A DNA stretch of 64,000 nucleotides, taken from a virus. Taxonomy: Duplodnaviria; Caudoviricetes. The stretch is taken from positions 1-64,000 of the IMG/VR virus record IMGVR_UViG_3300033417_000005; one strand, 5' to 3'. This document shows, piece by piece, positions 29,857-57,948 of this stretch. The notes beneath the pieces were generated by a model. The model was given only the letters and a program-made list of their open reading frames with translations. It was not told the origin of the DNA and did no database searches. Every line of letters starts with the position of its first letter. Within the stretch, counting starts at the first letter, position 1. The position numbers and the translations under genes were made by a program.

Positions 29857-30267
29857 ATGTGCCTGTCGGTAGCTGTTAATTATCCGGATTGTGTTTTGAG
29901 CAAGGGAGAGCACAAAGGATTTGAGTGGATGGTGGTACACAACGGCCACGGATACCGTTGCGGCTACGTGCGTCTCCCAGTCGGGCATCCGTGGCACGGT
30001 AAGTCTGATTGGGATCTCAACGCGAATGTTCATGGTGGATTGACGTTCTCCGAGCCGGATAAACCGTGTGATGGAGACCGACCGGACAATGCGTGGTGGA
30101 TCGGGTTTGACTGCGCTCATGGGGGCGACGTACCTGACCCGTCCTTGCCGGGGTACACAGACCTCGGGCTTGGGCCAGAGTTTGGAATAGTCCGGACCAC
30201 GGAGTACGTTGAGGAGCAATGTCGAGGCTTGTGCGATCAGGCAAAAGCGCGAGCTCGAAGAGGGTAA
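29857..30267 (+). CDS. Conserved hypothetical phage protein
   Basis: GYRCGYV...HPWHG...VHGGLTFS...WWIGFDCAH. Confidence 0.75.
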   Translation: MCLSVAVNYPDCVLSKGEHKGFEWMVVHNGHGYRCGYVRLPVGHPWHGKSDWDLNANVHGGLTFSEPDKPCDGDRPDNAWWIGFDCAHGGDVPDPSLPGYTDLGLGPEFGIVRTTEYVEEQCRGLCDQAKARARRG

Positions 30268-30324
30268 CTAATCACCTACTTTAGCTACCACAACTTGCTT
30301 GTGTTCAGGGAGTCGGGCGGCGGT

Positions 30325-31904: not shown

Positions 31905-31969
31905 CGCCACGCAGATGGAGGAGCGTGGATAATCACCCATGGACGTTACCATTCTAAAAGGGGAAGGCT

Positions 31970-32563
31970 ATGATGGCAGTGAAGCAGCGTAAGAAGAAAG
32001 AGGGACCTTTGAGCAAGAGAGACCGGATAAGGGAGTATCTGCAAGGCTGTCCTGATCTGAGAAGTATCAACGCGAAGGAAATTGGGCGTATCTTCGGAGC
32101 GAATTCTTCCGAGATTTATAAGGTGCGGAGGGGGATCTATAAGTCTAGGGCGTTCGAGTACACCAATGCAGGTCGCGACGAGATGTTGAAAGAGACGCCC
32201 AAAGAGTTGTCTTGTCGCAAGGAGCCGACGGGTAAGAGAGGAAGAGTACTGGAATACTTGAGAAACCAGCCTGACCTGGCGAACATCAAAGCTAGGGAAA
32301 TCGCGGTGAACTTCGGGGTGCATATTACGGAAGTGTATAGAGCAAGGAAGCTGCTTAGGGAGGAACCAGTCAAGCCACTTCTCCTGAGGTTGTCAGCGCA
32401 GGAACCTTCGGCAACACTCGCGCAGCAATCTCCAGCTTTCAATGGAGCCGGTGACGACGGGGAACTGATTGGCGACCTGGTTGCACTTAACAAGATGGGT
32501 GTCGACAGAGTACGGAGGGCTGTTAAGATCCTGGACCGTTTGAGTATGGAGGATATTCAATGA
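31970..32563 (+). CDS. Protein with two tandem HTH-like repeats
   Basis: RIREYL...AKEIGRIFG...SEIYKVR echoed by RVLEYL...AREIAVNFG...TEVYRAR. Confidence 0.65.
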   Translation: MMAVKQRKKKEGPLSKRDRIREYLQGCPDLRSINAKEIGRIFGANSSEIYKVRRGIYKSRAFEYTNAGRDEMLKETPKELSCRKEPTGKRGRVLEYLRNQPDLANIKAREIAVNFGVHITEVYRARKLLREEPVKPLLLRLSAQEPSATLAQQSPAFNGAGDDGELIGDLVALNKMGVDRVRRAVKILDRLSMEDIQ

Positions 32564-32853
32564 AAAAATCCAGAAGAAGAACGGAACTGCCTAAGGACTA
32601 CGAGCAGTATCTAATTCGGCTTACGGATGAGATCTTCGAACGGGCTTGCGACGAAATGAGCTGGACGTGGAACGAGCTGGCCGACCACGCCAACGTTAGC
32701 CGGAGTGCCGTAGCTCGGCTTGGCAACTACATTACTAAACTTCCTCGGCTTCAGACGTTCTACAAACTGGCAAGTGCGGTTGACATGGACTTGGAACTCG
32801 TAACCAAGCAAGTTGTTAAACTACGGACGGCGGGAAGTTTGAAAGTCGGCTAG
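32560..32853 (+). CDS. XRE-family HTH protein
   Basis: WTWNELADHANVSRSAVARL...PRLQT. Confidence 0.75.
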   Translation: MKKSRRRTELPKDYEQYLIRLTDEIFERACDEMSWTWNELADHANVSRSAVARLGNYITKLPRLQTFYKLASAVDMDLELVTKQVVKLRTAGSLKVG

Positions 32854-32925
32854 TTTCCGCTCGCCAATCAGCGGGCGGCGGATTGAAACAAACTACAGGC
32901 AGTGGGAAAGTTTGAAAGTCGGTTA
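32853..32925 (+). CRISPR. Solitary CRISPR repeat (32853-32889) plus 36-nt spacer (32890-32925)
   Basis: GTTTCCGCTCGCCAATCAGCGGGCGGCGGATTGAAAC; spacer matches 32818-32852 at 30 of 36 positions (1 gap), with 5' GTT PAM. Confidence 0.8.
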
Positions 32926-33068
32926 AAACGATCCCAGCGCGGGTGGGGCGGCGTTTCCAAGCTCTCTCGCTCGCCCGTGCTGGGTTTCACCGGGAGGGAC
33001 TCGGTTTCCGTACTCTGCCGAGTTCCTCCTTTATTGACGCGAAGACTGAGAAAAGGAAAATAGGCAGA

Positions 33069-33974
33069 ATGGTGAAGATAACCAAGGACGTGACAATGGA
33101 CGTTACAAGCAAGCAGCTTCGCAAAGGGTCCGTGAGCGGAAGGAAAAGGAAGTTACAAAGCTCCACGAAATCACAAAGCGTGATAGACCGTATTGCTCCG
33201 ATCAACTTTGGTGAAAACGATGGAATCAAGCTCAACCTCTATGGACGGAGCGGCACCGGGAAGACCACATTGTGGGCCACCTTTCCTAAACCGATACTGG
33301 CGGTGCTGGCTTCCGAATCTAAGACGTCGGGGGAACTTCGGAGCATCAATACTTCCGAGTACCGTAAGACGATCAAGCAAGTGGTGCTGGAAGACTGTGA
33401 CGAAATCGAGGAAATCTGCGCCCACGTGAAAGAAGCAAACTATGCTACTTTGGTATTGGACCACGCCACCGGATTGCAGCACAAGGTTTTGGCTGAAGTT
33501 CTAGGAATTGATAAAGTGCCGGAACAGCTTACTTGGGGGCTCGCCACTCAGTCGCAATACGGTCAGGTGGGGGTACGCATGAAGACTTATTTGCGCGCTC
33601 TGCTAGACGTAGAAATCAACGTGGTGATCGTGGCACAGCAAAGAGAATTTCTTACGGAAGGGGATGAGGGGGCAAGTGAGATTTTAGCTCCGTACGTAGC
33701 GAGCGCCTTGAGCCCGAGCACGTGCGCATGGCTCAACTCCTCGTGCGACTACATTGCACAGACCTACATTAGGGAAGAAACGCTGGAAAAGAAGATCAAG
33801 ATGGGAAAGAAGACACGTATTCGCAAGGTGCGCACGGGCAGCGTACAATTCTGTTTACGGGCTGCACCTCACGCCGTGTATACCACCAAATTTCGCAGAC
33901 CGAAAGGAGGAACGTATCCGGATGTTATTGTAGACCCTGATTATGACAAGATCATGCAAGTCGTGAAAGGATAA
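33069..33974 (+). CDS. AAA_24/Sak4-like ATPase (recombinase)
   Basis: LYGRSGTGKTT; LVLD; VIVAQ; start uncertain. Confidence 0.8.
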   Translation: MVKITKDVTMDVTSKQLRKGSVSGRKRKLQSSTKSQSVIDRIAPINFGENDGIKLNLYGRSGTGKTTLWATFPKPILAVLASESKTSGELRSINTSEYRKTIKQVVLEDCDEIEEICAHVKEANYATLVLDHATGLQHKVLAEVLGIDKVPEQLTWGLATQSQYGQVGVRMKTYLRALLDVEINVVIVAQQREFLTEGDEGASEILAPYVASALSPSTCAWLNSSCDYIAQTYIREETLEKKIKMGKKTRIRKVRTGSVQFCLRAAPHAVYTTKFRRPKGGTYPDVIVDPDYDKIMQVVKG

Positions 33975-34060
33975 GAATAAATCTCATCACCTACGGAGGA
34001 AGTAGACAAGCGACTTCACCTACGGAGCAAGGAAACGAGTTCCATGACCTATGGAGGATA
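33969..34060 (+). promoter_or_regulatory. csrA leader with three ANGGA motifs
   Basis: CTAC-GGAGGAA-GTAG hairpin, CACCTACGGAG and ACCTATGGAGG (the RBS). Confidence 0.55.
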
Positions 34061-34065
34061 AAGAC

Positions 34066-34242
34066 ATGCTGGTGCTAAACCGGAGAAAAGGGGAAAGGAT
34101 TATGATGGGTAAGGACGTCGTAATCACGGTGGTTGACATCCGTGGCCCTGTTGTGCGGCTGGGGATTGAAGCCCCGAAGGAATTGCGGATAGACAGAGAG
34201 GAAGTCCGTGTGCAGCGTTCGAAGAGTGACAAGCCAGTCTAA
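34066..34242 (+). CDS. csrA: Carbon storage regulator CsrA homolog
   Basis: MLVLNRRKGERIMMGKDVVITVVDIRGPVVRLGIEAPKELRIDREEV. Confidence 0.9.
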   Translation: MLVLNRRKGERIMMGKDVVITVVDIRGPVVRLGIEAPKELRIDREEVRVQRSKSDKPV

Positions 34243-34267
34243 CTAATTTTACAAAGGAAACTTGTAC

Positions 34268-35482
34268 ATGGCAAAGACAAGTGCGAAAAAGCTGTTAGGT
34301 CCTAAGTTCAAAAAGCTGTTTGCGAAGAAGCGCGTGGAGGAGATCAGCCTGGAAGACTTCGGAGGCGGTGGGAATCTCCCGGATGGGATTGAAAATGGGG
34401 TGGCCAAGCTGGTGTCCATTAAGATTGGGGCTTATGGAGAGAGCACAACTTTGGCGGGCAAGCCATTCTTCATGCTACGGGGAGTAACCGTTGCCCCTGC
34501 CACACATGAGGGACTCAAGGTGCGGGGTATCCAAGAGAGTTTCGTGCTGGAACCATTGTGCGACACTTCGGGACGTAAACGTGAGACGGAGGAGGAGCAT
34601 ATCGACTACATGCTTGCCGTGTTGCAGCAGTTCGGGGTGGACACCGGCGAGATTGATGCGGAAGAGCTGGAGGAGGAAGACTTTTTTGCGGAGCTGATTG
34701 CCGACGGCGTCTACTTCCGCTTCCGCACCTGGAAAGGCAGGCCCTCCGATCAGTTTCCCAACCCTCGGGTTAATATTGAATTCTTAGGAGCCTGTGAGTA
34801 CGAGGAGGGAGAAGACGACATAGTCGCGGAAGAAGTGGAGGACGACACCCCCGAGGAAGACGAGGACGAGGAACCGGATTGGGAAAAGAACGACCGAAAA
34901 GGCAAGCGAAGTGCTGGTACGTCCAAGGGTACTCCTACGAAGAAGCCCGTCAAAGGACGTGACAATGCTGCGCAAGCAAAGGGGAAAAAGAAACCGCCTC
35001 CTGAAGATGAAGATGAAGAAGAAGACGAAGAGGCTGACTATTCCGATGTAACCGACCTTGACTTGCTGTCGGAACTCGCTGAAGATCAAGACGACATAGC
35101 GGCGAGGGAGAGGCTGGTCGAGCTGGGCGTGGAAGCGGGGCTGAGTAAGAAGAAACTCGAAGCCCTCGACAGTTGGTACGACGTGGCCGCGGCGATTGAT
35201 GAAGCGGGTGAAGAAGATGAGAATGAGGATGAGGATGGGGACGATGAAGACGAAGATGAAGACGAAGATGAAGATGAAGATGAAGACGAAGATGAAGAAG
35301 AGGGCCGTGAATTAGTGCCGGAGAAGGGCCAAGGGTGGCAATACAAGCCGCCGGGAGCTCGTAAGAAGATCCCCTGCGTTGTCACCGCCGTTGCCGCACG
35401 GCGTAAAACTTGTACCCTCAAGGGAAAGGATGGAAAGATATACAAGGACGTAACGTGGGCTGCCCTCATGAGTGGCAGGTAA
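34268..35482 (+). CDS. Putative ssDNA-binding protein with long acidic region
   Basis: Follows the Sak4-like gene; beta-rich N-domain, D/E runs, small C-terminal beta domain. Confidence 0.55.
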   Translation: MAKTSAKKLLGPKFKKLFAKKRVEEISLEDFGGGGNLPDGIENGVAKLVSIKIGAYGESTTLAGKPFFMLRGVTVAPATHEGLKVRGIQESFVLEPLCDTSGRKRETEEEHIDYMLAVLQQFGVDTGEIDAEELEEEDFFAELIADGVYFRFRTWKGRPSDQFPNPRVNIEFLGACEYEEGEDDIVAEEVEDDTPEEDEDEEPDWEKNDRKGKRSAGTSKGTPTKKPVKGRDNAAQAKGKKKPPPEDEDEEEDEEADYSDVTDLDLLSELAEDQDDIAARERLVELGVEAGLSKKKLEALDSWYDVAAAIDEAGEEDENEDEDGDDEDEDEDEDEDEDEDEDEEEGRELVPEKGQGWQYKPPGARKKIPCVVTAVAARRKTCTLKGKDGKIYKDVTWAALMSGR

Positions 35483-35730
35483 CGCGATTTCTACGCCGTA
35501 CGGCGCACTCCCAGTCTTCCGGATGAGATGGGACGGGGGATTAGGGTGATTGCCCCACCGCGCCGTACGGTTTTTTGCTGCGCCAAGGACGTTACATTGC
35601 TGCGCCAAGGTGCAAGCCTGCTTCTAAGCCCCTCAGCCGCACCGTACAGGGCCTAAACCGGCTTTGGCTGCCCCCAGCTGCCATAAACCGCCAACTAGCG
35701 CCACATGGCGGCTGAGAGGCTCTCAGGGGC

Positions 35731-35758
35731 TTGTAAGAGTGGGCAGTTAGGGTAAAAT
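35731..35758 (+). promoter_or_regulatory. Sigma70-like promoter for the polymerase operon
   Basis: TTGTAA-16 bp-TAAAAT. Confidence 0.5.
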
Positions 35759-35799
35759 AGGGGGCATAGCCAGTATCCCACACATTGCGCAGGTCCACC

Positions 35800-35970
35800 A
35801 TGCCCAAGTTGCCGCCAGATAGAAACAAGCGCTCTAAGCGATGCGTCGCTTGCAGCGGTACAGGAAAAAGCAGTAAGGGTCAGGAGTGCAGGCCCTGTCA
35901 AGGAAAAGGTGTGAGGATTGTTGTTCGATGGACGCGCGACGGTGAAGCAATAAGGAGAGAGCGGGAATGA
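35800..35970 (+). CDS. Small DnaJ-type zinc-finger protein
   Basis: CVACSGTG...CRPCQGKG. Confidence 0.65.
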   Translation: MPKLPPDRNKRSKRCVACSGTGKSSKGQECRPCQGKGVRIVVRWTRDGEAIRRERE

Positions 35971-37964
35971 TGCGGTCGCTAGACACCGAGACTACGGGCG
36001 TAGACCTGTGGCATGGGGCCAAGCCGTTCTTCGTGACCTTTTGTGATGAGAAGGATCACATTACGTATTTTGAGTGGGAAGTTGATCCACATACCCGAGA
36101 GCCGCGGGTGAAGCGTAAGGACTTGACGGCAATCCAAGAGCTGATCGACGACTCGGAAACGCTCGTACTCCAAAACCCCAAGTTCGACTATCAGGCTCTG
36201 CAAACGGTGTTTGAAGGTCGGCTGCGATGGGAATGGAGCAAAGTACGCGATACGCTGCTGGCCGGTCATCTTATCAACAGTCTGGAACCCCACAACCTGA
36301 CCGACATGGTTTCCAAATACCTGGGCCTAGATATTCAACCCTACGAAAAGGATCTCCAAGCTGCTTCTGAAGAAGCGAGAAGATATGCACGCAGTCATTA
36401 CCCCGAATGGAGAATCGCGAAAGCTGGCCTCGCCGAAATGCCAAGCGCCGGAGGCAAGGTGTGGAAGTTCGACACCTGGCTGCCTAAGACGCTGGCGAAA
36501 TCTGAGGGGATGCTTACAACCCATCCATATCACACGGCGCTCCGAAAATACGGAAATATCGACAGCACCTGCACTCTAGCCTTGTATAAAAGACAGCGCG
36601 CATTGTTACGAGAGAAAGGACTTTGGAAAATCTACAAGCATAGACTCAAGGTGCTTCCTATCGTAGTTCACATGGAACAGTGCGGAGTGCATCTGAGCAA
36701 GCATAGACTGCAAAAGCTGTACGAGGAATATACGCGGGAAAGTGAGAGAGCCGGAAAAACGTGCGTACGGATTGCTAAGAAGTATGGAGCTGATCTGACA
36801 TTGCCTAAGAGCGGGGTGAACAACAGCCTGCGAGCCACAATCTTTGATCACCTGAAACTGAGCCCCCTGAATCTTAGCAGACGTACGGGGGAGCCGAGCC
36901 TGAACCAAACGGTGCTGGAAGAATATGGGGAACTCCTAAAGGAGGACGATCCTCGGCTAAAGTTCATCCAAGCTCTTCAAGCCAAACGCAAGCGCGATAC
37001 GGCGATGGTGTATATGGAGGCTTATAAGCGATTTTGGCTTAAGGAAAGTGGAAGTTACCTACTGCATCCTAGTCTGAACCCCACGGGTACTCACACGTTG
37101 CGGTGGTCGAGCAGCCGGCCGAACGAACAGAACATCAGCAAAAAGGAGGGCTTCAACCTCCGCTATTGCTTCGGTCCCGCCCAAGGAAGAGAGTGGTGGT
37201 CCCTCGATGCGCAGAACATAGAGCTCAGGATTCCCGCGTACGAAGCAAATGAAACCGATCTGGTATACGTATTCGATCATCCGGAGGAGGCTCCTTACTT
37301 TGGCAGCTATCATCTGGTCGTGGCTGATCTGCTGCATCCAAAACTGTTCAAAGAGTACGGCGCAGCGTTCAAAAAGAAGTTCTCCAGTACGTGGTATCAA
37401 TGGCTGAAAAATGGAAACTTTGCGGTTATCTACGGGTGTCAGCAACGGAAGGCGGATATCACGTACCACGTAGTTGGAGCGTACGAAAAGATTCGGAGAA
37501 GGTTTCCAAAGATCGCCGCGCTGGCCGACTATCAAATTCGTTATGCAAGAGAGCGCGGCTACGTGGAAACCATTCCTGACCGAAGTTTAGGGCAGCAACG
37601 GGGCTACCCGTTATACTGCGTTCGGGGTGGTCGCACGGGGTATACGAACGATGTAAGCCCTACGTTGCCGCTTAATTACCACGTCCAAGGAACGGCCATG
37701 CAATGGATGCAGAATGGTATGATCCGATGCTACGACATCCTAAACAGGTGGAACCGTGAAGATTCAGCGGTGCAATACTTCATGATAATGCAAGTGCATG
37801 ACGAGCTTGTATTCGACTTTCCGAAAAGCACCATGGCCGAAAGCCTGAAAAGAATACAACGGATCAAGAGAGCGATGGAAAAGGGAGGAGAGGACATTGG
37901 TGTGCCCACGACGGTGGGAGTGGAATATCATCCCCATAACTGGAGTGAAGGTGAAACATGCTAG
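35967..37964 (+). CDS. polA: Family A DNA polymerase with 3'-5' exonuclease
   Basis: LDTETTG; motif A DAQNIELR; motif B KNGNFAVIYG; motif C QVHDELVF. Confidence 0.95.
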   Translation: MMRSLDTETTGVDLWHGAKPFFVTFCDEKDHITYFEWEVDPHTREPRVKRKDLTAIQELIDDSETLVLQNPKFDYQALQTVFEGRLRWEWSKVRDTLLAGHLINSLEPHNLTDMVSKYLGLDIQPYEKDLQAASEEARRYARSHYPEWRIAKAGLAEMPSAGGKVWKFDTWLPKTLAKSEGMLTTHPYHTALRKYGNIDSTCTLALYKRQRALLREKGLWKIYKHRLKVLPIVVHMEQCGVHLSKHRLQKLYEEYTRESERAGKTCVRIAKKYGADLTLPKSGVNNSLRATIFDHLKLSPLNLSRRTGEPSLNQTVLEEYGELLKEDDPRLKFIQALQAKRKRDTAMVYMEAYKRFWLKESGSYLLHPSLNPTGTHTLRWSSSRPNEQNISKKEGFNLRYCFGPAQGREWWSLDAQNIELRIPAYEANETDLVYVFDHPEEAPYFGSYHLVVADLLHPKLFKEYGAAFKKKFSSTWYQWLKNGNFAVIYGCQQRKADITYHVVGAYEKIRRRFPKIAALADYQIRYARERGYVETIPDRSLGQQRGYPLYCVRGGRTGYTNDVSPTLPLNYHVQGTAMQWMQNGMIRCYDILNRWNREDSAVQYFMIMQVHDELVFDFPKSTMAESLKRIQRIKRAMEKGGEDIGVPTTVGVEYHPHNWSEGETC

Positions 37965-38842
37965 CGAAGCGCTGTAACGTCCAGGATCTAAAAAGTATGT
38001 ACGGGCTGAAGAATTTGGATGTCTTCTTCTATTGGATTGGTGAAAGAGAAAAGATACGCCGGGCCAAGGAAGCGGGAGAGCCTAAGCCTTGGACCGAGGA
38101 TCCGATACTGCAAAAGTACAGATTCTGCAACGTCCGGAGAATGGACGACCGAGTAAGCAGGTGGCTCTTCGACCGCTGGTACGAGCCGGAATTTGATTGC
38201 TCGAATATGCTTACGGCGTGTACGATCGCTCGGCTGCTCAATCTGCCGGAGTCGTTGGAGGCTATTGGTTTTCCAAGACAGTGGAAACCGCACCGAGTAG
38301 AAAAGATACTGGAAGAGAGGAAAAAGCAGGGCTGCAAAACCTTCAACTCCGCCTACATAATCACCGGCTGCTTCGGGGGAAGTAAGATCCATCAAGTAGT
38401 CTGGTGGATTACGCAGCCTATTCACAAAGATCGCCACAAAATTGTGGATCGTACGAGCATGCGAGCTACTTGGCAAAATCTGCTGGCGTACCCCGGCATC
38501 AAGTCATTTCTAGCCGGGCAGATTGTGGCTGACCTGAGATGGGCGATCAACCACGAGTGGAAGGACCAATACACGTGGGCTCCTCTAGGACCGGGAAGCC
38601 GTAGAGGAATGAACAGGCTGCTCGAAAGACCGAAAAGTCGGGGGATGGGACAAGAAGAGTTTGATGGATACTTTGGGTCGCTGATCGAGGAAGGAAAAGA
38701 CAGGGACGGGTGGGTGCTGGCTGAAACTATGGAACGGATGGAGGCGATCGACTGGCAAAACTGCTTGTGCGAATTCGACAAGTATATGAGAGCCCTGACG
38801 GGACAAGGCAAGCCGAAACAGAAATATGCGGGGGTAGAATGA
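37958..38842 (+). CDS. 5-hydroxymethyluracil DNA kinase (aGPT-Pplase1 family)
   Basis: PWTEDPILQKYRFCNVRRMDDRVSRW; FLAGQIVADL; GPGSRRG; QNCLCEFDKY. Confidence 0.85.
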   Translation: MLAKRCNVQDLKSMYGLKNLDVFFYWIGEREKIRRAKEAGEPKPWTEDPILQKYRFCNVRRMDDRVSRWLFDRWYEPEFDCSNMLTACTIARLLNLPESLEAIGFPRQWKPHRVEKILEERKKQGCKTFNSAYIITGCFGGSKIHQVVWWITQPIHKDRHKIVDRTSMRATWQNLLAYPGIKSFLAGQIVADLRWAINHEWKDQYTWAPLGPGSRRGMNRLLERPKSRGMGQEEFDGYFGSLIEEGKDRDGWVLAETMERMEAIDWQNCLCEFDKYMRALTGQGKPKQKYAGVE

Positions 38843-39840
38843 ATATCAACCTGTTCTATTTAAGCGACGCACGCTACGGGGGTCACGTCACCTTTACCGT
38901 GCATCTAATGCTCGGACTGCGGGCTGTCGGTGCCTCGGCGTCGCTCTACAAGGTAGGTAAGAACACGGAAGACAAATGGCGTGACTTCGGTTACGGTAGA
39001 TTGTATCAAAACATTTCGCTAGTGGATGCTTGCAGGCTGTGCAAAAGCAAGCGCAGCGTCACTTTGGTTGTGGCAACCAACAAGCCGTGCGCGCAGGCGA
39101 TCAACGCCATGATAGATGCGGGGGCTAGAGCGGTGATCCATGATCCTGGTGAGTTTAAGCGAGGATGGAATTGGCAGAAGGTGCAGCGGCCTATTGTAAT
39201 CCGTGAGAGTATGCTCTCCTGGTTTGAGGACGCCGTGTTCCTGCTCCACCCTTACGATCCGTTGTTCGGTAAGATATTCGTAGCTCCAACGGAGGAATGG
39301 GCGGCGGTAAGCACGAGTAGAATAGATTTTGACAAGCACACGGAAATCTTGCTTGACGCGAATAGACTGCTTGATAAGAAAGACAGGATACAAATTTATG
39401 GGTTTGAAAATAGAATCTATACACGGTTTAACGTCGTACCTAAGTACCCGGAATGGCGGCAGTCCGTATGCAAGTATCCGAGAAAACTGCGTTACGCCGT
39501 GAGGCAGCTCTGTCACAAGGCTGCGTTCAGTTGCGACATGTCCATTATCAAAGGCGACGGTGGAGGCACGCAATATACGTTTTTGGAGGCGATAGACGCC
39601 GGGTGCGCCCTCGTTCTGAATCGCGGGTGGATTATCGACAATCACGTAATGAACCCCGACAGCAACTGTTTTGCGGTGTCCGATGGGGAACAGCTTGCCG
39701 GGCTCATCAAAGAGTACACACGAGGCTCGAAGATAATGCGCCGTAGGGTTGAAAGAAGAAGGATCAAGGCCCGCCGATTGCTGGACAAGCACCTTGCCCG
39801 GAAAGTAGCCGTTTCTTGGAAGGAGGAGTTACATGACTGA
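38839..39840 (+). CDS. GT-B fold glycosyltransferase
   Basis: YGGHVTF N-motif; DGGGTQYTFLEAIDAG resembles the GT4 ExxGxxxxEA motif; ATGA coupling to the kinase. Confidence 0.7.
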   Translation: MNINLFYLSDARYGGHVTFTVHLMLGLRAVGASASLYKVGKNTEDKWRDFGYGRLYQNISLVDACRLCKSKRSVTLVVATNKPCAQAINAMIDAGARAVIHDPGEFKRGWNWQKVQRPIVIRESMLSWFEDAVFLLHPYDPLFGKIFVAPTEEWAAVSTSRIDFDKHTEILLDANRLLDKKDRIQIYGFENRIYTRFNVVPKYPEWRQSVCKYPRKLRYAVRQLCHKAAFSCDMSIIKGDGGGTQYTFLEAIDAGCALVLNRGWIIDNHVMNPDSNCFAVSDGEQLAGLIKEYTRGSKIMRRRVERRRIKARRLLDKHLARKVAVSWKEELHD

Positions 39841-40624
39841 CGTCTACATCGCCCCGTTTTTTCGTAGATCGGGTGGACACGCCGTGCTTCATTGGCTCGG
39901 GGCGGGCTACAGCAACTACACGCTGGTAAGCGAGATTCCAGTAACTTATCGTCCATTGAAGAGATTCAGCAATGTAGAATGGAATGTCGACGCAGTGTTC
40001 TTTGCCGTGGAGGATAAGTTTATCGCTCCTAGAAGCAAGGAGTTGACTAGTCTTTTGGACACTTACCCGATAAAGAACCCAACAAGAGTGTTTCACGTGT
40101 CCATCGTTCGGGATGCGTACAACGCCTGCGCAAGCAGAATGCGCATTAGCGACAATTGGCTATGGCGGAGAAGAAGCCGGGGGTTGCCCGACGCTCCCGA
40201 CAGCTACTATCCCGTCCATGGCTACAACTCGCGGCTTCCCGCTCTGTGGCGGTCTATAGTGGAGCAGAGCATGGAGGAACTGTCTAGTCATGCCTTGATG
40301 GTAAACTTCAACAAATGGGCTAGAAGCGACGAGTATCGTTACAATTTATGCAAATGCTTTGGGCTGAAACATCTAAAATGTGAGAAAGGAAAGGAGCGGG
40401 TTACGAGGGAAGGAGGAGGAAGCAGCTTTACGGGTACGACTAAAATGCCCGAGCATTGGGAGCTCAAAAATAGATGGCTGGGATACGCCAAGGACCCGAG
40501 GCTTTTAGAGGTCGTGCTGAATAAAGAAATCAGAGAGATAAATAAGCAAGTTTTCGGCTGGTCCCTTCGACGAAACCGCGATGGAGACATTGAGAGTGAG
40601 GAGTGGCCCTGGGCAGCCTCTTAG
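39833..40624 (+). CDS. Sulfotransferase-like protein
   Basis: RRSGGHAVLHWL; SIVRDAYNACASR. Confidence 0.5.
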   Translation: MTDVYIAPFFRRSGGHAVLHWLGAGYSNYTLVSEIPVTYRPLKRFSNVEWNVDAVFFAVEDKFIAPRSKELTSLLDTYPIKNPTRVFHVSIVRDAYNACASRMRISDNWLWRRRSRGLPDAPDSYYPVHGYNSRLPALWRSIVEQSMEELSSHALMVNFNKWARSDEYRYNLCKCFGLKHLKCEKGKERVTREGGGSSFTGTTKMPEHWELKNRWLGYAKDPRLLEVVLNKEIREINKQVFGWSLRRNRDGDIESEEWPWAAS

Positions 40625-40648
40625 GACACAAATGAAAGGGTCTAAAAG

Positions 40649-40852
40649 ATGATTCCAAGCCTTGATGAATTGATATTACGCCTACGCCGGGACGTGCCGC
40701 ACCGGGACTCTATGTATGAACTTGCCCGACAAGTAGCGGGCTGTGAAAGGGGAACGGATGGGCTGCCCGTAAACACCGTGCGCTTTGCGTTCCAGTGTTT
40801 GGTTGTGCTGCTTAAACACGTTGAAAACGACCCTAAGAATCCGGAAAACTGA
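40649..40852 (+). CDS. Hypothetical protein
   Basis: 67 aa within operon. Confidence 0.5.
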   Translation: MIPSLDELILRLRRDVPHRDSMYELARQVAGCERGTDGLPVNTVRFAFQCLVVLLKHVENDPKNPEN

Positions 40853-40853
40853 C

Positions 40854-41612
40854 ATGAAATCTAAGATTCTAATCGTGACCCGAGGCAGGCCGTGGCATAA
40901 GCAATCTACAGCTCAGGCGCTCATGGAGGCTGACATCCCTTTCACCTTTATCCGCACTTTGGGAGACGAAGTATCCTTGTTCTGCGCAAGGCGTAAGACG
41001 TCCGCCATCTGGGTCGACGCTTCGAACATCGCGGTGAAACGACAGAAGGTGCTGCAACTCTACAAACGGTTCATCATGCTCGACGACGACCTGTCGTTCC
41101 AAAGGGTAGTTGAAGGCAAGGCGGTAAAGGCGGCCCCCGATGAGCTGGAGGCTTTATTCGCTCTCATGGATCAGTGCTTAAATACTCATGCTCTAGTCGG
41201 CCTGGAAAACCGTTTCATGATCCAGAACAAGGAGCAGCCGTTCAACAGCAAGTGGGGGAAGATGATCCACGCAGTAGGCGTAAATAAGAAGTTCTTAAAA
41301 GGCAACGAGCGGTACAGCCGCGTACCCGGCCATGAAGACATTGACTTCTTTTTGCAAGTGGCGATGAATAAGTGCCCCGTGATCATGATCTCCAAATATA
41401 CCCATAGCGACGCCGGGAACTTTTATCGGCCGGGAGGATGCAGTACGTGGAGAAACAAAGAGAATGACCACGAGCAAGCCCGCAAGCTCCAATCTCTGTG
41501 GCCGAGTATTATTACTCTCTATCCGGGAAAAGACGGAATTACTAGAGTCAAAGGAAACTGGAAAAAGGTGAGGGAACATAATGCCTCCGCTGCACAAAAA
41601 ACCAAAATCTGA
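40854..41612 (+). CDS. GT-A glycosyltransferase (TET-associated/TAGT-like)
   Basis: IVTRGRP; FIMLDDDL; EDIDFFLQ; GGCSTWR. Confidence 0.75.
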   Translation: MKSKILIVTRGRPWHKQSTAQALMEADIPFTFIRTLGDEVSLFCARRKTSAIWVDASNIAVKRQKVLQLYKRFIMLDDDLSFQRVVEGKAVKAAPDELEALFALMDQCLNTHALVGLENRFMIQNKEQPFNSKWGKMIHAVGVNKKFLKGNERYSRVPGHEDIDFFLQVAMNKCPVIMISKYTHSDAGNFYRPGGCSTWRNKENDHEQARKLQSLWPSIITLYPGKDGITRVKGNWKKVREHNASAAQKTKI

Positions 41613-42558
41613 CTACGTTCAGCATCCTCCGTTTTGTATTCAAATTGAGCTGACTGAAGGATGCAATTTACGGTGTACTTTCTGCGGCCTCAACGGAATC
41701 CGTGGCAAGGAAAACAACTTCAAGTTCCTTTCGGTCAGTCTGGCTTCAAGAATTGCCAAGCTGATCCGTAAAGATCGGTGGACCTCCCGGATCGAGTTTG
41801 CCATGCACGGAGAGCCAAGTGTAAATCCAGACTTGGTGGAGATTCTTAGGGTCTTTCGCCGTAGACTTCCCAACCATCATCTGATGATGACCAGCAACGG
41901 GGCGGGGTTTCTAAGAGAGACCACGAAGACGGTCGATGAATGCCTACGCTATTTGAACGTGCTTGCCTTGGACGATTACGAGGGAGTGAGTATTGTGACC
42001 AAGGTGATGCGCAGCTACAACGGCAAGCATAAGCCAGTGTACTATCCTTCCAGCAAGCATGGCAACCCGCATCGTAGGAGGAAACTGAGCGAGCATGACC
42101 TCGTGGTAGTGCAAGACATAGAACAGGCTACGCAAGGCACTCATAGCAGCTTGAACAATCATTGTGGCTGTGGCTCACCGAAGAACGACAGTGCCATGGG
42201 CAAGCGGTGCGCTAAACCGTTCCGGGAGATGTCGATACGGTGGGACGGCTTCGTGGCTCTGTGCTGCAACGACTGGAGGGGGTACTACAAGTGCGGTCAC
42301 GTAGAAGACAAGACCTTGGAACAGATATGGCAAAGCGCGGAGTTCATGGCCGCCCGGAGAAGACTGATACTTGGGAAGAGGGACTTCGGGCCTTGCGAAG
42401 GCTGCGACGCCCTGAGCTACCGACCGGGGCTGCTGCCGGATCAGAGGGGAAAGGTGCATCTGCCTGAGCCTAGCAGGGCCGACGAAGAGACCATTGCCAA
42501 GGCGCTGTTTGGAGCTTCCTACACGCTGCCCGTACTACGAGAGTGGGAGAGCGCATAA
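41581..42558 (+). CDS. Radical SAM/SPASM protein
   Basis: CNLRCTFC; HGEPSVNP; CAKPF...DGFVALCCNDW...IWQS...CEGC. Confidence 0.9.
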   Translation: MPPLHKKPKSDYVQHPPFCIQIELTEGCNLRCTFCGLNGIRGKENNFKFLSVSLASRIAKLIRKDRWTSRIEFAMHGEPSVNPDLVEILRVFRRRLPNHHLMMTSNGAGFLRETTKTVDECLRYLNVLALDDYEGVSIVTKVMRSYNGKHKPVYYPSSKHGNPHRRRKLSEHDLVVVQDIEQATQGTHSSLNNHCGCGSPKNDSAMGKRCAKPFREMSIRWDGFVALCCNDWRGYYKCGHVEDKTLEQIWQSAEFMAARRRLILGKRDFGPCEGCDALSYRPGLLPDQRGKVHLPEPSRADEETIAKALFGASYTLPVLREWESA

Positions 42559-42607: not shown

Positions 42608-43018
42608 CTACTTGGTCTTAACGCTCCTTCCTTCCTTAGTCAGAAACAACACCATGCCTCCCTCTTCCATGCTTTCCCGAGCTATCAAGCCTCGGGCTCG
42701 TAGGGAAAGACAGGGTGCTTTTGAGGCGTTGGCCCATACGTCCTCACGGGGGACGCCTCGCGCCGCGCTGAAGGCTTTCTGTTCCTTGAGGTAGGCGAGC
42801 ACTTCCAGCTCACCACTTGTCAGCTCAGCATCTTCGAGCTCGTCGGCTAAAGCGGCCACCCGATCTACACGGGGGAGAGGCTCTTTCACCGGCTGGGGCT
42901 TCTTCTTCTTTCCCTTTTTCTCCGGTACACTTTCACTTACGGGGGCGTTACTGCTCGAAGACTCGCGCTTTCTCCGTACGCGCTTTTTGTCCGTACCTGT
43001 TTCAGATCCAGTCGCCAT
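42608..43018 (-). CDS. Winged-helix DNA-binding protein (paralog of 56806-57252)
   Basis: VLAYLKEQ...REDVW...CLSLRARG...LFLT; GAGGAG RBS. Confidence 0.7.
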   Translation of the reverse strand: MATGSETGTDKKRVRRKRESSSSNAPVSESVPEKKGKKKKPQPVKEPLPRVDRVAALADELEDAELTSGELEVLAYLKEQKAFSAARGVPREDVWANASKAPCLSLRARGLIARESMEEGGMVLFLTKEGRSVKTK

Positions 43019-43157: not shown

Positions 43158-43706
43158 GTGATTTCAAGGATCTTTGTGGACCTGGACGACGTACTGGTGG
43201 ACTTTCGGGGAGGCGCAATTCGGCTGCATGGGTGGGATCCGGCGGATTGCCGACCCGAAATGTGGGATATGTGTGAGTCGAGAGGAGTAACACAAGAAGA
43301 TTTTTGGAAACCTATTGATGAAGCCGGAGAAGACTTTTGGTACTTGCTGCAACCCCATCCTTGGATACACGAAGTCATAGAACTGGTGGAAAGGCACGTG
43401 GGTGAGGAGTGGTACATAGTCACCTCGCCGAGCAGGCACGTTAGCTCTTACGTTGGCAAGCTAAAATGGGTCAAGGCGTGGTTTGGCGCACAGTTTGACA
43501 GGATGATTCCAATGACGCATAAACACCTGCTGGCGGATTATGACAGAGTGCTAATCGACGACAGCCCGGATAACATTCTGGAATTTAATAATGCCGGAGG
43601 AATTGGAATTTTGTTTCCAAACGTCGGCAACAGTCTGCATGAACAGGCGCACAGTCCGATGGACCACGTTGAGGAAATCTTAACGCGGATAATGCAACAG
43701 GAGTAA
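43158..43706 (+). CDS. HAD 5'(3')-deoxyribonucleotidase
   Basis: IFVDLDDVLVDF; IVTSP; LIDDSPDN. Confidence 0.85.
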   Translation: MISRIFVDLDDVLVDFRGGAIRLHGWDPADCRPEMWDMCESRGVTQEDFWKPIDEAGEDFWYLLQPHPWIHEVIELVERHVGEEWYIVTSPSRHVSSYVGKLKWVKAWFGAQFDRMIPMTHKHLLADYDRVLIDDSPDNILEFNNAGGIGILFPNVGNSLHEQAHSPMDHVEEILTRIMQQE

Positions 43707-43712: not shown

Positions 43713-44900
43713 ATGGAACTCGTTTTTAAAGACGTAAACGATGCGTTTGCCGTGCTGGTTGAAATGGTGTTGAAAAACCAGATAGGAACCACGAAAACCA
43801 CGAGCCGAGCGGGCGACGTTATTGCCATCAACGAGCCGATGCTGATCACGTATGAAAATCCTTGCCATCGGGTGCTGTTCAACCCCTTGCGCGACTGTAA
43901 CTGTTTCTTCCAGTTGTACGAAGCCCTTTGGATGCTGGCCGGTCGTAACGACGTATCACCTCTGGCGTACTACAACCGGAGAATGACTGAGTTTAGTGAC
44001 GACGGCAAAACCCTCAACGGTGCGTATGGATATCGATGGAGAACTAAGCCGAGAATGCCTTGGACCGACCTGTACGGTGCTAGTCCTGCAAAATTCGCGG
44101 AAGTTCATTGCGGTCCGGTTCGGCGAGTTGACCAGCTAGATATCTTAGTCGACCACCTGAAGAAAACTCCCAACAGCCGACGTGCGGTTCTCCAAATGTG
44201 GGACGTGGAGGACGACCTTTTGAAAATAGATGAATCGAAGGACGTGAGTTGTAATCTCTCAGTCATGTTCAGCCTGAGGCAAGGAAGGTGTGAAGTCTGT
44301 GACGATTACCGAGGCCCGGATCAGGACTGTCCCGCATGCAACAGCGAGTCCCCCACGTTCTTGGACATGACGGTTACGAACCGCAGCAACGACATGATTT
44401 GGGGAATGCTAGGTGCTAACGTGGTACACTTTAGTTTCCTTCTTGAATACATAGCGGCGCGGCTGGGGGCGAGCGTTGGCCGGTATCACCAGTTCACCAA
44501 CAACCTTCACGTCTATACGAGTAACTGGCTGCCTCGTAAGTGGCTGAGCGTGTACGGTCAGTATCGCACGATGTACAGTCCGCCCAATACGCGGTACGAA
44601 GACCTTGCTTCGCTCGTGCCCCTCGTTGTAGACCCGGAACGGTTTGATCGTGAACTGCCTGAGTTTGTGGAAAGGCATAGTAAGGACGCGACCGGTGTTG
44701 CTTACAAACTCAACAGTGAACCGTTCTTGCAAAACGTGGCACAGCCTCTGTGTACCGCGTTCCATTACCACAAGCGTCGTCAGTATGCGGATGCCATGAG
44801 TGTAGTTCAGGAAATCCTAGCGGACGATTGGCGGATCGTTGCTACGGATTGGATCCGGAAACGGCGCTCGAAGTATGAGAGCAAAGGTAATAATGCCTAG
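43713..44900 (+). CDS. Thymidylate synthase homolog, probable dUMP hydroxymethylase
   Basis: GAYGYRWR; NSRRAVLQMWD; DVSCN; RSNDMIWGMLGAN; NLHVY. Confidence 0.85.
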   Translation: MELVFKDVNDAFAVLVEMVLKNQIGTTKTTSRAGDVIAINEPMLITYENPCHRVLFNPLRDCNCFFQLYEALWMLAGRNDVSPLAYYNRRMTEFSDDGKTLNGAYGYRWRTKPRMPWTDLYGASPAKFAEVHCGPVRRVDQLDILVDHLKKTPNSRRAVLQMWDVEDDLLKIDESKDVSCNLSVMFSLRQGRCEVCDDYRGPDQDCPACNSESPTFLDMTVTNRSNDMIWGMLGANVVHFSFLLEYIAARLGASVGRYHQFTNNLHVYTSNWLPRKWLSVYGQYRTMYSPPNTRYEDLASLVPLVVDPERFDRELPEFVERHSKDATGVAYKLNSEPFLQNVAQPLCTAFHYHKRRQYADAMSVVQEILADDWRIVATDWIRKRRSKYESKGNNA

Positions 44901-46872: not shown

Positions 46873-47226
46873 ACGTCAGTGATCTTTGCAATCAGGTTTA
46901 AGGGCCGTAGGTGCGTGCTAGCGCTAGGGGGCCTCAGTGGCCCTTAGCCGTACACACCGGGCTAGGGCAGTGTTACCTGCCCCCACAAGCAAGCGCAGCG
47001 CTGTAACGCCCCTAGCGTAGGGCAGGGCGTAAATGGGGCCGCCTCAGTGGCCCTCAGCCGTACGCGCCTAGGGGCAGGCGTGGTATTACTGCCCCTTAGC
47101 AAACGTGCGTTAGGGCGCAAATGAGGGGCCGTGAGGGGCAAGCACCTTGCGCAGCAATTGTTACGCCCTTTGGCGCATAAAAACACCCCCACGGGCACTA
47201 CTACATAAGGGGGTATATTAACGGTG

Positions 47227-47490
47227 TCAGATAATGTTCTCTTCTACAAACTCAACAAAGCCTAGCCGTTGGGCGATCTTTCCCAGGTCGAAGTGATCCT
47301 TGTGCCGGTCCCAAAACCCACGGCAACAAAGAGCCTTGGAGTGATGGCAAATACGCCAGCCGTTGAAGTGTCCTTTCATGAGTGGATTAGCGATCTGTTT
47401 CTCCAAGGCTTGTAGGTCTAGAGGGGAATCTGCACGGTAGATGCAGGTGGCGCACTGTTTAGCTTGAACTTTCATAGATTTCTGTTTCAT
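47227..47490 (-). CDS. Cys-rich hypothetical early protein
   Basis: CATCIYR...CHHS...CCRGFW. Confidence 0.65.
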   Translation of the reverse strand: MKQKSMKVQAKQCATCIYRADSPLDLQALEKQIANPLMKGHFNGWRICHHSKALCCRGFWDRHKDHFDLGKIAQRLGFVEFVEENII

Positions 47491-53284: not shown

Positions 53285-53518
53285 TCAGTCTTCGTGGCGG
53301 CCCCAGGCATTTTCGTATTCCGCTAGGGTGTCCTCCAGTCTTACAAACAGCTCTTCGACCTCCGTAGTATCCATTCGTACGAGCAGGTCCTTGGCGCGCG
53401 TGCCTGCGATAGGCCAGCGTTCCGATGGAAGCTGCTGCTTGATCATGGCTGTTAATAGGTCGTCGATCGCCACGGCCATGGGGGCGGTTTGTGCGAATTT
53501 ACCAGGGTTTGTACTCAT
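53285..53518 (-). CDS. Hypothetical early protein
   Basis: AAGGAG RBS before ATG at 53518. Confidence 0.65.
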   Translation of the reverse strand: MSTNPGKFAQTAPMAVAIDDLLTAMIKQQLPSERWPIAGTRAKDLLVRMDTTEVEELFVRLEDTLAEYENAWGRHED

Positions 53519-53620
53519 TTCATTTCTCCTTGTGGGTGTTACAACGCTTCGCGAGGTGTTGTGTACTCCGTCCCCGTGGGTGCCACATTGTGTGGCGGCC
53601 AAGGCACGGGGCCAACCTAT

Positions 53621-53649
53621 AGCCTAGCATACCGGCTAAAGGGATACAA
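53621..53649 (-). promoter_or_regulatory. Early-type promoter P3
   Basis: TTGTAT-17-TAGGCT; spacer near-identical to P2. Confidence 0.65.
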
Positions 53650-53754
53650 GGGGTAAAATGGCGGTATATAATGGTATTGGGTGTAAAACAAAATTGGATG
53701 CGGACGTAAGGTAAATAGTGATAAAACCCTGAAACAAGATTGGAGAATTGTAGA

Positions 53755-55076: not shown

Positions 55077-55388
55077 ATGAACAAACTCCCAACCGGAAAG
55101 CTGACTCCTAGATCGAATGAATTTGTCAGCGGAATCCGTATGACCGGAGCATTCGGCCAGCCCGACGGATTCGGTTCTGTACTGCGGTGCATAGTCACGA
55201 AAGATGGCAGCGCGCAATTTACGATGTATATTCGGAACGAACACCGAGACGGTGAACAAGGGATCGATTTTTGGACGGTTGCTCTGGACAACGAGCAAAG
55301 GGGCATTTTGGCGCGATGGCTGAGCACAACGGGGCACGATCCAACGTTGGTGGAATATATTCACGACGAGGAATCTGTCAAGGGATGA
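55077..55388 (+). CDS. Hypothetical protein
   Basis: AGGA RBS. Confidence 0.6.
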   Translation: MNKLPTGKLTPRSNEFVSGIRMTGAFGQPDGFGSVLRCIVTKDGSAQFTMYIRNEHRDGEQGIDFWTVALDNEQRGILARWLSTTGHDPTLVEYIHDEESVKG

Positions 55389-56133
55389 TCACGATCTTAC
55401 GGGTGGCGCGACGAGATTTTTTGGCGCAAAAAGTTGAATATGTGACTCATTGACTCATGGAAAAACCAAAACTTACTTCGCGAGAAATGCTTCGTCGTGA
55501 CAACGCTCCACGTGGAAGACGGATTTTAAAAAATCGTGGTGCCCCACCCGCACACCACCCTTCTTAGGATAAAGAAAAGAATATTCTTTGTAAAGTATAG
55601 AGAATCTAATCTTAAGCATAAGTTCTTATTCTCTCTAGAAAGAGAAAGAAAAGAAGAGATACGATTTTATTCAGTAAAAAGAAGACTTCTTCTCTTAGAA
55701 AGATCAAAGAATCTTTGTAAAAAGTAAGACTTCTTCTTTTAGAAAGAAAAGAAATTTGAGTTCTTCTTTTGAAAAGAAAAAAGTTTCCGTCTTGGGTGTG
55801 CGCGTACGCGCGAGGAATCCGCTTTTGATTTCGTTTCGGTCCATGAACTTTGATTTCCGTTCGTTCCTAGATTCTTATCTTCGATTCAGTTTACCTGGAT
55901 CCTAGATTCTTATCTTCGATTCAGTTTATCTGGATCCATCTTTTCGGTTCTTATGTTTTGATTTCCATTCGTTCCAAAGTTTCGGTCCAAAGTTTTTGAT
56001 TTCGTTTCGTTCTTAGCCTTGGAATTTGGATCATCCATCTTTTCGGTTCTTGAGTTTTGATTTCCATTCGTTCGCGTTCCAAGATGTGGAAAGAATTTGA
56101 ACTTCCACTTTTGCGAAACGTGCCCGCAACGAT

Positions 56134-56183
56134 TTGGATTGGATTGGATTGGATTGGATTGGATTGGATTGGATTGGATTGGA
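56134..56183 (+). repeat. (TTGGA)10 microsatellite
   Basis: Ten perfect units. Confidence 0.95.
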
Positions 56184-56546
56184 AATGGAAGATGAATGAA
56201 AACCCTTGGCCGGAAAACGATTTGTGAATGCAAGCGCAGCGCTGTAACGTCCAAGAAACGGGGTACTTCTAAATACCTCAAAAGTGGCAAATAATCTACC
56301 AGTTTGTTAAGCTAGGCAAACCTAGGCTGAGGGGCCCAAATTTGCGACCTCACGCACTTTGCCGGGTTTTGGCATAAAACTAGCCACTTGCCATTTTAGG
56401 ACGTCAGATCCTAAATTTGGGTCCCTGAGGACAAATTAAAAAGCAAACCGCATTGCCAATTGCCAAACCTGAATTTTCAAAACGCTCTGTACAGCGTACC
56501 CTTCGCCTCGTAGCGACATAGCCCCATTGCCCCGTATGTCGGCTCG

Positions 56547-56591
56547 TTTCGGTCCAATTCTTTTCGGTCCAATTCTTTTCGGTCCAATTCT
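56547..56591 (+). repeat. (TTTCGGTCCAATTCT)3 tandem repeat
   Basis: Read directly. Confidence 0.9.
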
Positions 56592-56755
56592 TCATACTTG
56601 GCTTTCTCATCCACGCCCCTGCACATACTTCCATTTTTCAGCTACACTCTTTATACCACTTCTAGGGGGTTAGGTACCCCCACCTCAGGGGGGCCACTAC
56701 TAGGGGGTATGCCACCCCCACTAGGGTAGTGTACGTTTGTACAAAGCAGGTGCAT

Positions 56756-56782
56756 AAAAAACCCGGCCCGCCTTGGCCGGGT
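56756..56782 (-). terminator. Rho-independent terminator
   Basis: ACCCGGCC-AAGGCG-GGCCGGGT-TTTTT on the minus strand, just after the stop at 56806. Confidence 0.8.
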
Positions 56783-56805
56783 AGTGTACCAACGTACACT
56801 AGGGG

Positions 56806-57252
56806 TTAGCTGATTGTTGGCCCCCAATTAGGCGCCGCGCTTTTGGTGGCAGCACCAGCACCAGCACCAGCACCAGCACCAGCCGTTGCCTTAGGTGCTT
56901 TAGCCTTACGCGCGGCCTTGGCTTTGGGGGCTTTGCCTGTTAGGTACAACCCCATTTGCGGCGTACGGCCAACCACGCCCATGGCCCGCAGCGTTAGGCA
57001 AGCTACTTGGCTGGTGCCCGGTGCCAGCCATACTTGGGTGCGTGTAACCGCCTTGGCCGCGTTAACTGCCCCCTGCGCCTTTAAGTACGCCAACACGGCG
57101 GTTTGTGCCGCCAGTAGCTTGGCACTAGGCTTGGCCGTTAGCGTGCCTACCAAATCCAGCTGCTTGGCCGTAATGCCATTACCCGCCACCGTAGCCGCCG
57201 CCTTGCCTACAACCGCCGTACCCGTACCCTTACTTTGCTTTGCGTTAGCCAT
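56806..57252 (-). CDS. Basic Lys/Ala-rich winged-helix protein, likely first-expressed
   Basis: VLAYLKAQ...RTQVW...CLTLRAMG...LYLT; 1 Asp and 0 Glu; own promoter and terminator. Confidence 0.75.
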   Translation of the reverse strand: MANAKQSKGTGTAVVGKAAATVAGNGITAKQLDLVGTLTAKPSAKLLAAQTAVLAYLKAQGAVNAAKAVTRTQVWLAPGTSQVACLTLRAMGVVGRTPQMGLYLTGKAPKAKAARKAKAPKATAGAGAGAGAGAATKSAAPNWGPTIS

Positions 57253-57376
57253 TTTGCTAACCCCTATAGCAACGTGTGGTGCATGGCCAACCATAGCCAG
57301 CCCACAACAACCACGGCCAGCCCGCCGTGGCCAGCCCCACACACGGTTGGCCAACACAGCCAACCCACACACATAA

Positions 57377-57404
57377 AGTATAGCCTACCCCGCGGCTAGT
57401 GCAA
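57377..57404 (-). promoter_or_regulatory. Early-type promoter P4
   Basis: CCCC-TTGCAC-16-TATACT, also containing TAGGCT. Confidence 0.6.
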
Positions 57405-57948
57405 GGGGTACGCACAAAATTTTACAAAAAAGATTTTGGAAGTTTGGCATAAGGAATGCGTACCATAGTGTACGGCTATACAGTGTACACAATTACATCT
57501 AGGTATACAGCTGTGCACTACTGTACGGATGTACTTGGATTGGATTTGGCGGTTCGCGGCTGGTGCGGAGAATCGTGGTCTTGCCCCTACCCTACGTCGT
57601 GCATTTTTGGATCAAAATCTGCCCCTTAGCCACGTCGTGTATTCATGAGTCTTCGAATTGTAACGTCCTAGCGAAGCTATGTTACGTCCTTGGATCAAGA
57701 TCAGCCCATTTCACTCACTCTTTCGTTCACTGAGGGAAAAATTTGCTCCTATTTCGCGAGTCCTTGAAAATCTAGCGAAGCTAGCTCGAGCGAAATGAGG
57801 GACCGGTTGTGAGTTGTTTTTCACTAAAAAATCGCGATCTCGAAAATTTTCTCTCGTACCCGAGGGCTTTTTATAGTGTACGAATGTATACTGTTGTTGA
57901 ACCGAAGATTCTGTGTAAAATGGGGGTATTTACGCTCTGGAGCAAGGT

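Follow-up and report, generated by a model that had tools for sequence, protein, structure and literature searches.

In phages that hypermodify thymine, 5-hydroxymethyldeoxyuridine (hmU) is converted 'in a sequence-specific fashion' (PMC5889632, PMC8989533). The restriction sites that are resistant in M6, ViI and PhiW-14 point to a kinase preference for TG/TC, and the M6 kinase acts on TG (PMC6449724). Phage T-dioxygenases have preferences of the same kind, 5mYOX97 favouring NTC and another enzyme NTG (PMC13229309), and phosphorylated hmU templates, i.e. templates with a charged 5-substituent, turn Escherichia coli RNA polymerase off (PMC6457204). Here, an uncultured phage from soil metagenomes (G000) is analysed, represented by the 72,616-bp IMG/VR virus record IMGVR_UViG_3300033417_000005, which is judged complete and of which bases 1-64000 form the window. 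Like M6, ViI, PhiW-14, SP10 and PaMx11, it has a thymidylate-synthase homologue next to the polymerase, an HMUDK helical protein, a radical S-adenosylmethionine (SAM) enzyme and a nucleotidase (PMC5889632, PMC8989533, PMC6449724). M6-type systems modify some of their T residues and leave others unchanged, depending on the dinucleotide in which they stand (TG/TC proposed), and the same would be expected of this phage. It also carries, at 56686..57431, an island from which the dinucleotides TC and GA have been purged on both strands, with 2 sites left in 746 nucleotides (nt).

The purge is real. An exact dinucleotide count over the 746 nt gives one GA (56812-56813) and one TC (57155-57156), in agreement with the original prediction, where one of each had been counted by hand in 56687-57431 against roughly 90 expected. 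The island's own base composition predicts 40 + 50 TC/GA sites; overall, ~90-97 are expected and 2 are seen (P < 1e-30). The three longest TC/GA-free runs of the whole genome lie side by side here (127 + 343 + 277 nt, 56685-57432), and the purge is beyond chance because runs of at least 277 nt are expected only ~1e-13 times at the genome density of 0.131 TC/GA per nt. Genome-wide, neither dinucleotide is depleted (observed/expected 1.01 for TC and 1.07 for GA), and no comparable island was found in G000 for the other complementary dinucleotide classes, except for CC/GG in an AT-rich low-complexity stretch. The island occurs without any difference in contigs of three soil-metagenome studies, and its identical sequence in two further studies means that it is no assembly artefact. 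No similar DNA was found in cultured phages, and Rfam and tRNA searches gave no match.

The island holds a complete unit of predicted sigma-70 type, in which promoter, leader, ribosome-binding site (RBS), gene and intrinsic terminator follow one another in order on the minus strand. The predicted promoter consists of a -35-like hexamer, TTGCAC (57399..57404), preceded by an A/T-rich tract that extends to 57431, and, after a 16-nt spacer, a -10-like hexamer, TATACT (57377..57382), which would place the start of transcription near 57370. The -35 hexamer matches TTGACA at only 3 of 6 positions, the GA of TTGACA being excluded in the island. A leader of ~118 nt (57253..57370) is G/T-rich and, as read from the sequence, contains TGGCCA repeats and a hairpin (57336-57315); it includes the RBS, AGGGG rather than AGGAG (57265-57261). 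The coding sequence (56806..57252; ATG at 57252, TAA at 56808-56806) specifies a protein of 148 amino acids (P0001) and is followed by the intrinsic terminator (56761..56782), an 8-bp GC stem and then TTTTTT, which is the best terminator-like site within 12.5 kb. The earlier claims that the island spans promoter, gene and terminator, and that even its RBS avoids GA, were thereby borne out. The purge extends beyond the predicted transcript on both sides, with TC/GA-free margins of ~61 nt upstream of the inferred start (57371-57431) and 75 nt past the terminator (56686-56760). As these ~136 nt contain 0 TC/GA, the constraint appears to act on double-stranded DNA and not on the transcript.

Within the gene, codon choice is forced by TC/GA avoidance. 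When synonymous versions of the P0001 sequence were simulated with the phage's own codon usage, their TC/GA count was 34.2 +/- 4.3 and never fell below 18 in 20,000 draws; the gene has 2. Serine is encoded by AGY only, and GGA, AGA, CGA, CTC, GTC and TTC are absent. The protein is basic and rich in Ala, Lys and Gly, with one Asp and no Glu. Its paralogue in the same phage, P0005 (136 amino acids; 42608..43018, minus strand; 38% identity over 89 amino acids, E 6e-14), is of ordinary composition, with 21 Asp/Glu and 59 TC/GA. The P0005 gene sits in the middle of the hypermodification gene cluster described below, with its own terminator and with a promoter of the island class (ACCCCTTGCA...TAGGCT at ~43113-43081). 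The family is tiny, as an HMMER profile search of 1.8e9 representative proteins returned only seven matches. Two of its members, P0003 (1 Asp, 0 Glu) and P0006 (0 Asp/Glu), are 53-61% identical orthologues of the island copy, encoded on a 1,940-bp JGI contig and a 3,263-bp ENA contig, respectively, and P0005, P0007 and P0009 have an ordinary acidic composition; by this sequence comparison, the acid-free state is kept across diverged phages.

P0001 comprises a winged-helix-like core (residues 48-105), an H1-like AKAPK tail and a Gly-Ala repeat of variable length. In the AlphaFold2 model the mean predicted local distance difference test score (pLDDT) is 58, but it is near 77 in the core, where the order of elements is H-H-H-E-E. 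The top Foldseek matches are all winged helix-turn-helix (wHTH) proteins (TubR, ScpB, MarR, Zur), but with E >= 0.09, and nothing was found in the PDB at E <= 0.001. P0001 has no Pfam match, and an Atlas structure search with P0005 gave template-modelling scores of 0.66-0.72 to small wHTH clusters. The models thus hint at a winged-helix-like fold. The Gly-Ala repeat is encoded by a GCACCA tandem repeat (56850-56889) whose copy number differs between samples; P0010-P0012 have one Ala-Gly unit fewer than P0001.

The hypermodification genes lie on the plus strand. The HMUDK_hel protein, P0004 (PF18723; 37958..38842; E 4.4e-44, bit score 151 with the cut-off at 25), has no P-loop; it is a homologue of M6 gp55 and PaMx11 gp50 (30-34% identical), and homologues were found in 307 phage records, mostly ViI-like, M6-like and PaMx11-like. 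Four modification genes specific to G000 follow (38767..42558). The first two (38767-39840 and 39833-40624) have no Pfam or PHROG match and no tblastn match in phages, and the labels 'GT-B' and 'sulfotransferase-like', respectively, could not be verified for them; the others encode a DNA glycosyltransferase (TAGT / phrog_842, E 6e-21; 40785-41612) and an rSAM-SPASM enzyme (41581-42558). Beyond these lie genes for an NT5C-type deoxypyrimidine nucleotidase (43158-43706) and the thymidylate-synthase homologue (43713-44900; Pfam Thymidylat_synt 1.7e-20, phrog_5131 1e-89). In the latter, the base-specifying position is taken by the Asn in RSNDMIWGMLGAN, where the CMP hydroxymethylase MilA has its Asp in the alignment; this argues for an enzyme of the deoxyuridine monophosphate (dUMP) type, so that the protein is a putative dUMP hydroxymethylase-type enzyme.

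The kinase step of the M6 pathway was not found. Searches by tblastn with M6 gp54 and PaMx11 gp49 gave no P-loop 5-HMUDK match in G000, although the same search finds the one in a relative, G002, and none of the cluster proteins has a Walker A motif. For the aGPT-Pplase / amino-acid:DNA transferase (AADT), tblastn with M6 gp51 and PaMx11 gp46 gave no significant match in G000, and there was no Pfam match either. Also without a match in G000 were Tet_JBP (PF12851), ParB_N (PF02195) and tyrosine integrases; T7-type RNA polymerase (PF00940) gave none, but this result is uninformative since the control failed as well. The original prediction of a 5-HMUDK phage therefore stands for the helical-domain protein (PF18723) and the T-hypermodification gene set, but not for the P-loop kinase domain. 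Its remark that genes for 7-deazaguanine modification were not seen was confirmed for the whole genome, in which DpdA/TGT (PF01702) has no match at E <= 1, the control being positive in 14/14 genomes; in phage CAjan this type of modification has a GA context. Taken together, the gene content suggests that G000 very probably synthesises DNA with hmU, which is subsequently decorated via a glycosyltransferase-type route not yet characterised. A second, tailoring-type cluster was observed after the tail genes (17165-23906), with a glycosyltransferase-like protein, Methyltransf_24, a radical SAM protein, a class I methyltransferase and a weak sulfotransferase-like match; it is partly common to the relatives G002 and G006, and its target may be DNA or a virion sugar.

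Three relatives (G001, G002 and G006) have TerL proteins 42-48% identical to that of G000, and none of them has the island, either of the winged-helix genes or the glycosyltransferase cluster. Among the genomes compared, G000 alone combines these features. G002 (~27400-37700) encodes homologues of the whole M6 5-NedU pathway (gp51, 52, 53, 54, 55, 58), and G000 and G001 keep only those of gp55 (HMUDK_hel) and gp58 (thymidylate synthase). The HMUDK_hel protein is thus retained even in phages that lack the kinase, and may have an independent function.

A possible context for the modification was sought in the palindromes of these genomes. The z-scores for under-representation of six-base palindromes were regressed on the presence of TA, TC, TG and TT, four-base palindromes being added for the permutation test. 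Across G000, six-base palindromes are under-represented (mean z -1.1), with a coefficient of +0.79 for TC (t 2.1, permutation p 0.035) and of -0.03 for TG. For M6 the coefficient for TG is +2.96 (t 5.3), in agreement with the TG context reported for its kinase, which indicates that the test works. TG was also positive in G006 (+1.6, t 3.0) and G002 (+0.8), and G001 gave no signal. Palindrome relief thus points, weakly, to TC in G000 and to TG in its relatives, and regressions of this kind may offer a cheap guess of T-modification context from sequence alone. For T in TC as the hypermodification target, as first proposed, the T-hypermodification genes, the relief of TC palindromes and the published dinucleotide contexts speak in favour; the lack of a P-loop 5-HMUDK speaks against.

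With about even confidence, the island is read here as a cassette that escapes the thymine hypermodification which the phage itself would apply in TC context, and so usable by proteins such as host RNA polymerase. The phage would build its DNA with hmU in place of T, and hmU would be turned into a bulky, probably glycosylated, derivative only at T before C. One host-type transcription unit, written without TC on either strand, would then stay plain DNA in a decorated genome. Proteins that read the major groove could use the plain unit unaided, first among them the host sigma-70 RNA polymerase and perhaps a regulator at the flanking TAGTGTACG sites. Its product would be a basic winged-helix DNA-binding protein, the recoded twin of the copy in the modification cluster, which may come into play early, to start or regulate the modified genome. 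Besides the purge and the recoding, the combination of island, winged-helix pair and glycosyltransferase cluster in G000 alone counts in favour of this reading, as do GA-free variants of a dispersed 24-nt motif described below.

Several observations weigh against this reading. The TC context itself comes from a single weak statistic, over 80 palindromes, together with analogy. Promoters of the same class as that of the island (43113 and 51764) contain TC/GA, and if the mark blocked initiation these would need another explanation. No P-loop 5-HMUDK, aGPT-Pplase/AADT or TET/JBP was found in G000, leaving no candidate among these for the enzyme that sets the context. The device does not appear to be general, as none of 25 IMG/VR loci with a homologue of the protein encoded at 38767 has an island. 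M6, a proven hypermodifier, has none either, and altogether four relatives are without such an island. Furthermore, peptide and DNA-pattern scans of viral and metagenome contig collections did not recover the genes of P0003 and P0006, for which a purge at the DNA level is implied only by their few Asp/Glu residues, and a basic DNA-binding protein may have few acidic residues for reasons of its own.

Among the alternatives, evasion of a host weapon directed at TC/GA (a TC-preferring DNA deaminase, a DarT-type ADP-ribosyltransferase or a short-motif nuclease) is unlikely, though it has points in its favour. The gene needed first would stay usable as a template even as damage or repair went on elsewhere in the genome, and it would encode an anti-defence or DNA-coating protein. 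This would suit a constraint that acts on DNA and symmetrically on both strands, as well as a host-type promoter in front of a gene for a very basic, DNA-binding-like product. TC-directed DNA toxins do exist, as in the DddA-type deaminases and in Thermus DarT, with the motif TNTC. However, we know of no defence that is specific for a bare dinucleotide, and shielding 1% of the genome would not save the other 99% unless the damage were reversible. P0001 has no match to an anti-defence family, the island goes with a phage-specific modification cluster and not with anything known of the host, and the relatives, which come from similar soil samples, are without it.

The island could instead be a cis-acting platform kept unmodified for protein binding, such as a packaging start, a transcription-activated origin or an operator array, with the recoding of the gene as a by-product; this too is judged improbable. 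Its surroundings lend the idea some substance. The island precedes the small-terminase gene terS (57949), which is followed by terL (58858), by 0.5 kb, and it adjoins a non-coding repeat/iteron block of 1.1 kb (55540..56640) with an AT-rich, CC/GG-free core (55567-55787). Only four exact TAGTGTACG sites occur in the window, and they flank the unit, at 57466-57474, at 57874-57882 and, as an operator-like inverted pair around the terminator (56727..56801), at 56727 and 56793 (inverted). The purge also reaches past the transcript on both sides. Nevertheless, its limits match the promoter and terminator with short flanks, and not the iteron block, which is TC/GA-rich and, with 17-22 TC/GA per 100 nt at 55601-56200, is among the richest parts of the genome. 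A length of 745 bp is long for a binding site, and the orthologues on two other contigs are also acid-free, so the constraint would seem to be tied to the gene itself.

A constraint on the RNA, with GA and UC kept out of the transcript so that it is not recognised by an endoribonuclease or an RNA-binding repressor (for example GGA-binding CsrA, or a GGAG-cutting enzyme of RegB type), is very improbable. It would account for the replacement of AGGAG by AGGGG at the RBS and for an mRNA with one GA and one UC. However, the reverse-complementary dinucleotides are purged equally, as a constraint on double-stranded DNA predicts, and the ~136 nt outside the predicted transcript are empty too. In addition, there is a second, weaker TC/GA-poor stretch (46892..47227; 6 sites against 44 expected) that is non-coding and has neither a credible open reading frame (ORF) nor a convincing structure (RNA fold z -1.2, not significant). 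Lastly, chance, local base composition, low complexity, foreign origin or an assembly artefact might have been suspected from the higher GC content of the island (0.61 against 0.52 for the genome) and its short tandem repeat, but this explanation is refuted by the 90 sites predicted from the island's own composition, the identical sequence in three studies and the codon simulation, and such a run, for any dinucleotide class, is found in 0/2 complete genomes of distant relatives. The probability that remains is left for an explanation not yet thought of.

The second TC/GA-poor stretch carries two GA-free variants of a dispersed 24-nt motif on the minus strand (46989-47012 and 47145-47168), in which GGGC replaces the usual GGAC. 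The motif, AGGACGTKACA-NN-GCTKCGC-NAGG, is asymmetric and occurs at ~22 sites in the window, mostly on the gene strand (e.g. 7781, 10901, 34954, 49652 on the minus strand, and 58621); its end frequently falls in the RBS of the following gene, but it is also found within genes. The inner part forms a small palindrome with covarying arms (TAGC/GCTA, TAAC/GTTA, TGAC/GTCA). A phage-specific promoter, a processing site and a protein-binding site, the last perhaps for the winged-helix proteins, are all conceivable roles. Four smaller TC/GA-poor patches (6627-6909, 25574-25818, 35533-35817 and 53496-53737) were considered as promoter-linked and rejected, as other dinucleotide classes give equally weak patches; two of the four are homologous promoter modules.

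Further features were observed around the island and at the genome ends. Two copies of a 28-nt hairpin repeat (GGGGG-N7-CCCCC; 56656..56721, plus strand) lie at the left edge of the island. The iteron block contains 35-nt and 41-nt direct repeats, three copies of TTTCGGTCCAATTCT and ~11 tandem GGATT units (56134-56188); it resembles an origin or packaging region, and assemblies from other runs break at the GGATT repeat. Two homologous promoter-leader modules on the minus strand (51764-51720 and 53660-53610; 84% identical over 52 nt) share the ACCCCTTGCA...TAGGCTATA class with the island promoter, and are predicted to drive the small minus-strand genes of the accessory region that they precede. 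A near-consensus sigma-70 promoter (TTGACA-16-TATATT, 11/12; 55381-55354, minus strand) is antisense to the end of the ORF at 55077-55388. At the genome ends (1-200 and 72480-72616), the last ~130 nt repeat positions ~70-200 with few mismatches, within a 924-amino-acid tail-fibre-like ORF that is open at the contig start, and the contig looks circularly closed through this internal repeat.

No account of a transcription unit purged of a dinucleotide turned up in literature searches, and by the literature searched it appears to be new. If the island is indeed a modification-escape cassette, hypermodification shapes the gene expression and the protein sequence of the phage that carries it and is not only a matter of nuclease resistance, and the context of an unknown modification could be inferred from a purged dinucleotide together with the palindrome-relief test. 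The first gene needed by a hypermodified phage would be identified, and a small winged-helix family would be tied to a new glycosyltransferase-type thymidine pathway. A broader and more doubtful proposal is that context-hypermodified phages carry a 'bootstrap' gene, with its target dinucleotide erased and readable by the host, which encodes a DNA-binding pioneer factor, in G000 the winged-helix twin of a cluster gene, that lets the host machinery start on an otherwise unreadable genome. In that case the context of the modification could be read off the erased dinucleotide, even for an uncultured phage known only by its sequence, and the modification would both shield the genome and, as a built-in switch, time its transcription.

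Compared with the M6-type systems, G000 has glycosyltransferase-type genes in place of the P-loop kinase and the aGPT-Pplase/amino-acid:DNA transferase, and no modification-free island is reported in the papers on those systems (PMC5889632, PMC8989533, PMC6449724). The NTC and NTG T-dioxygenases are a precedent for post-replicative T modification limited to 5'-TC-3', and their clusters encode a DNA-binding helper, with TET-associated glycosyltransferases downstream (PMC13229309). G000 differs from that pathway in that it is without Tet_JBP and ParB_N, has only the TAGT-type glycosyltransferase, and would make its hmU before replication by means of the thymidylate-synthase homologue. Restriction-site avoidance is similar in that a short DNA word is removed from phage genomes by selection, and palindromes are under-represented in G000 too. 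However, the purge described here is local (1% of the genome), total and at the level of a dinucleotide, and it strips Asp and Glu from the protein, whereas the rest of the genome uses the word freely. The early region of T7 (ocr) and the first-step-transfer region of T5 are likewise self-contained units with host-type promoter and terminator and a small product presumably needed early. To our knowledge, no compositional purge has been described for either. The vertebrate CpG islands are alike in being promoter-linked stretches, defined by one modification-target dinucleotide, that stay unmodified; those islands keep the dinucleotide and are shielded from the enzyme, whereas in the phage island the target itself is deleted.

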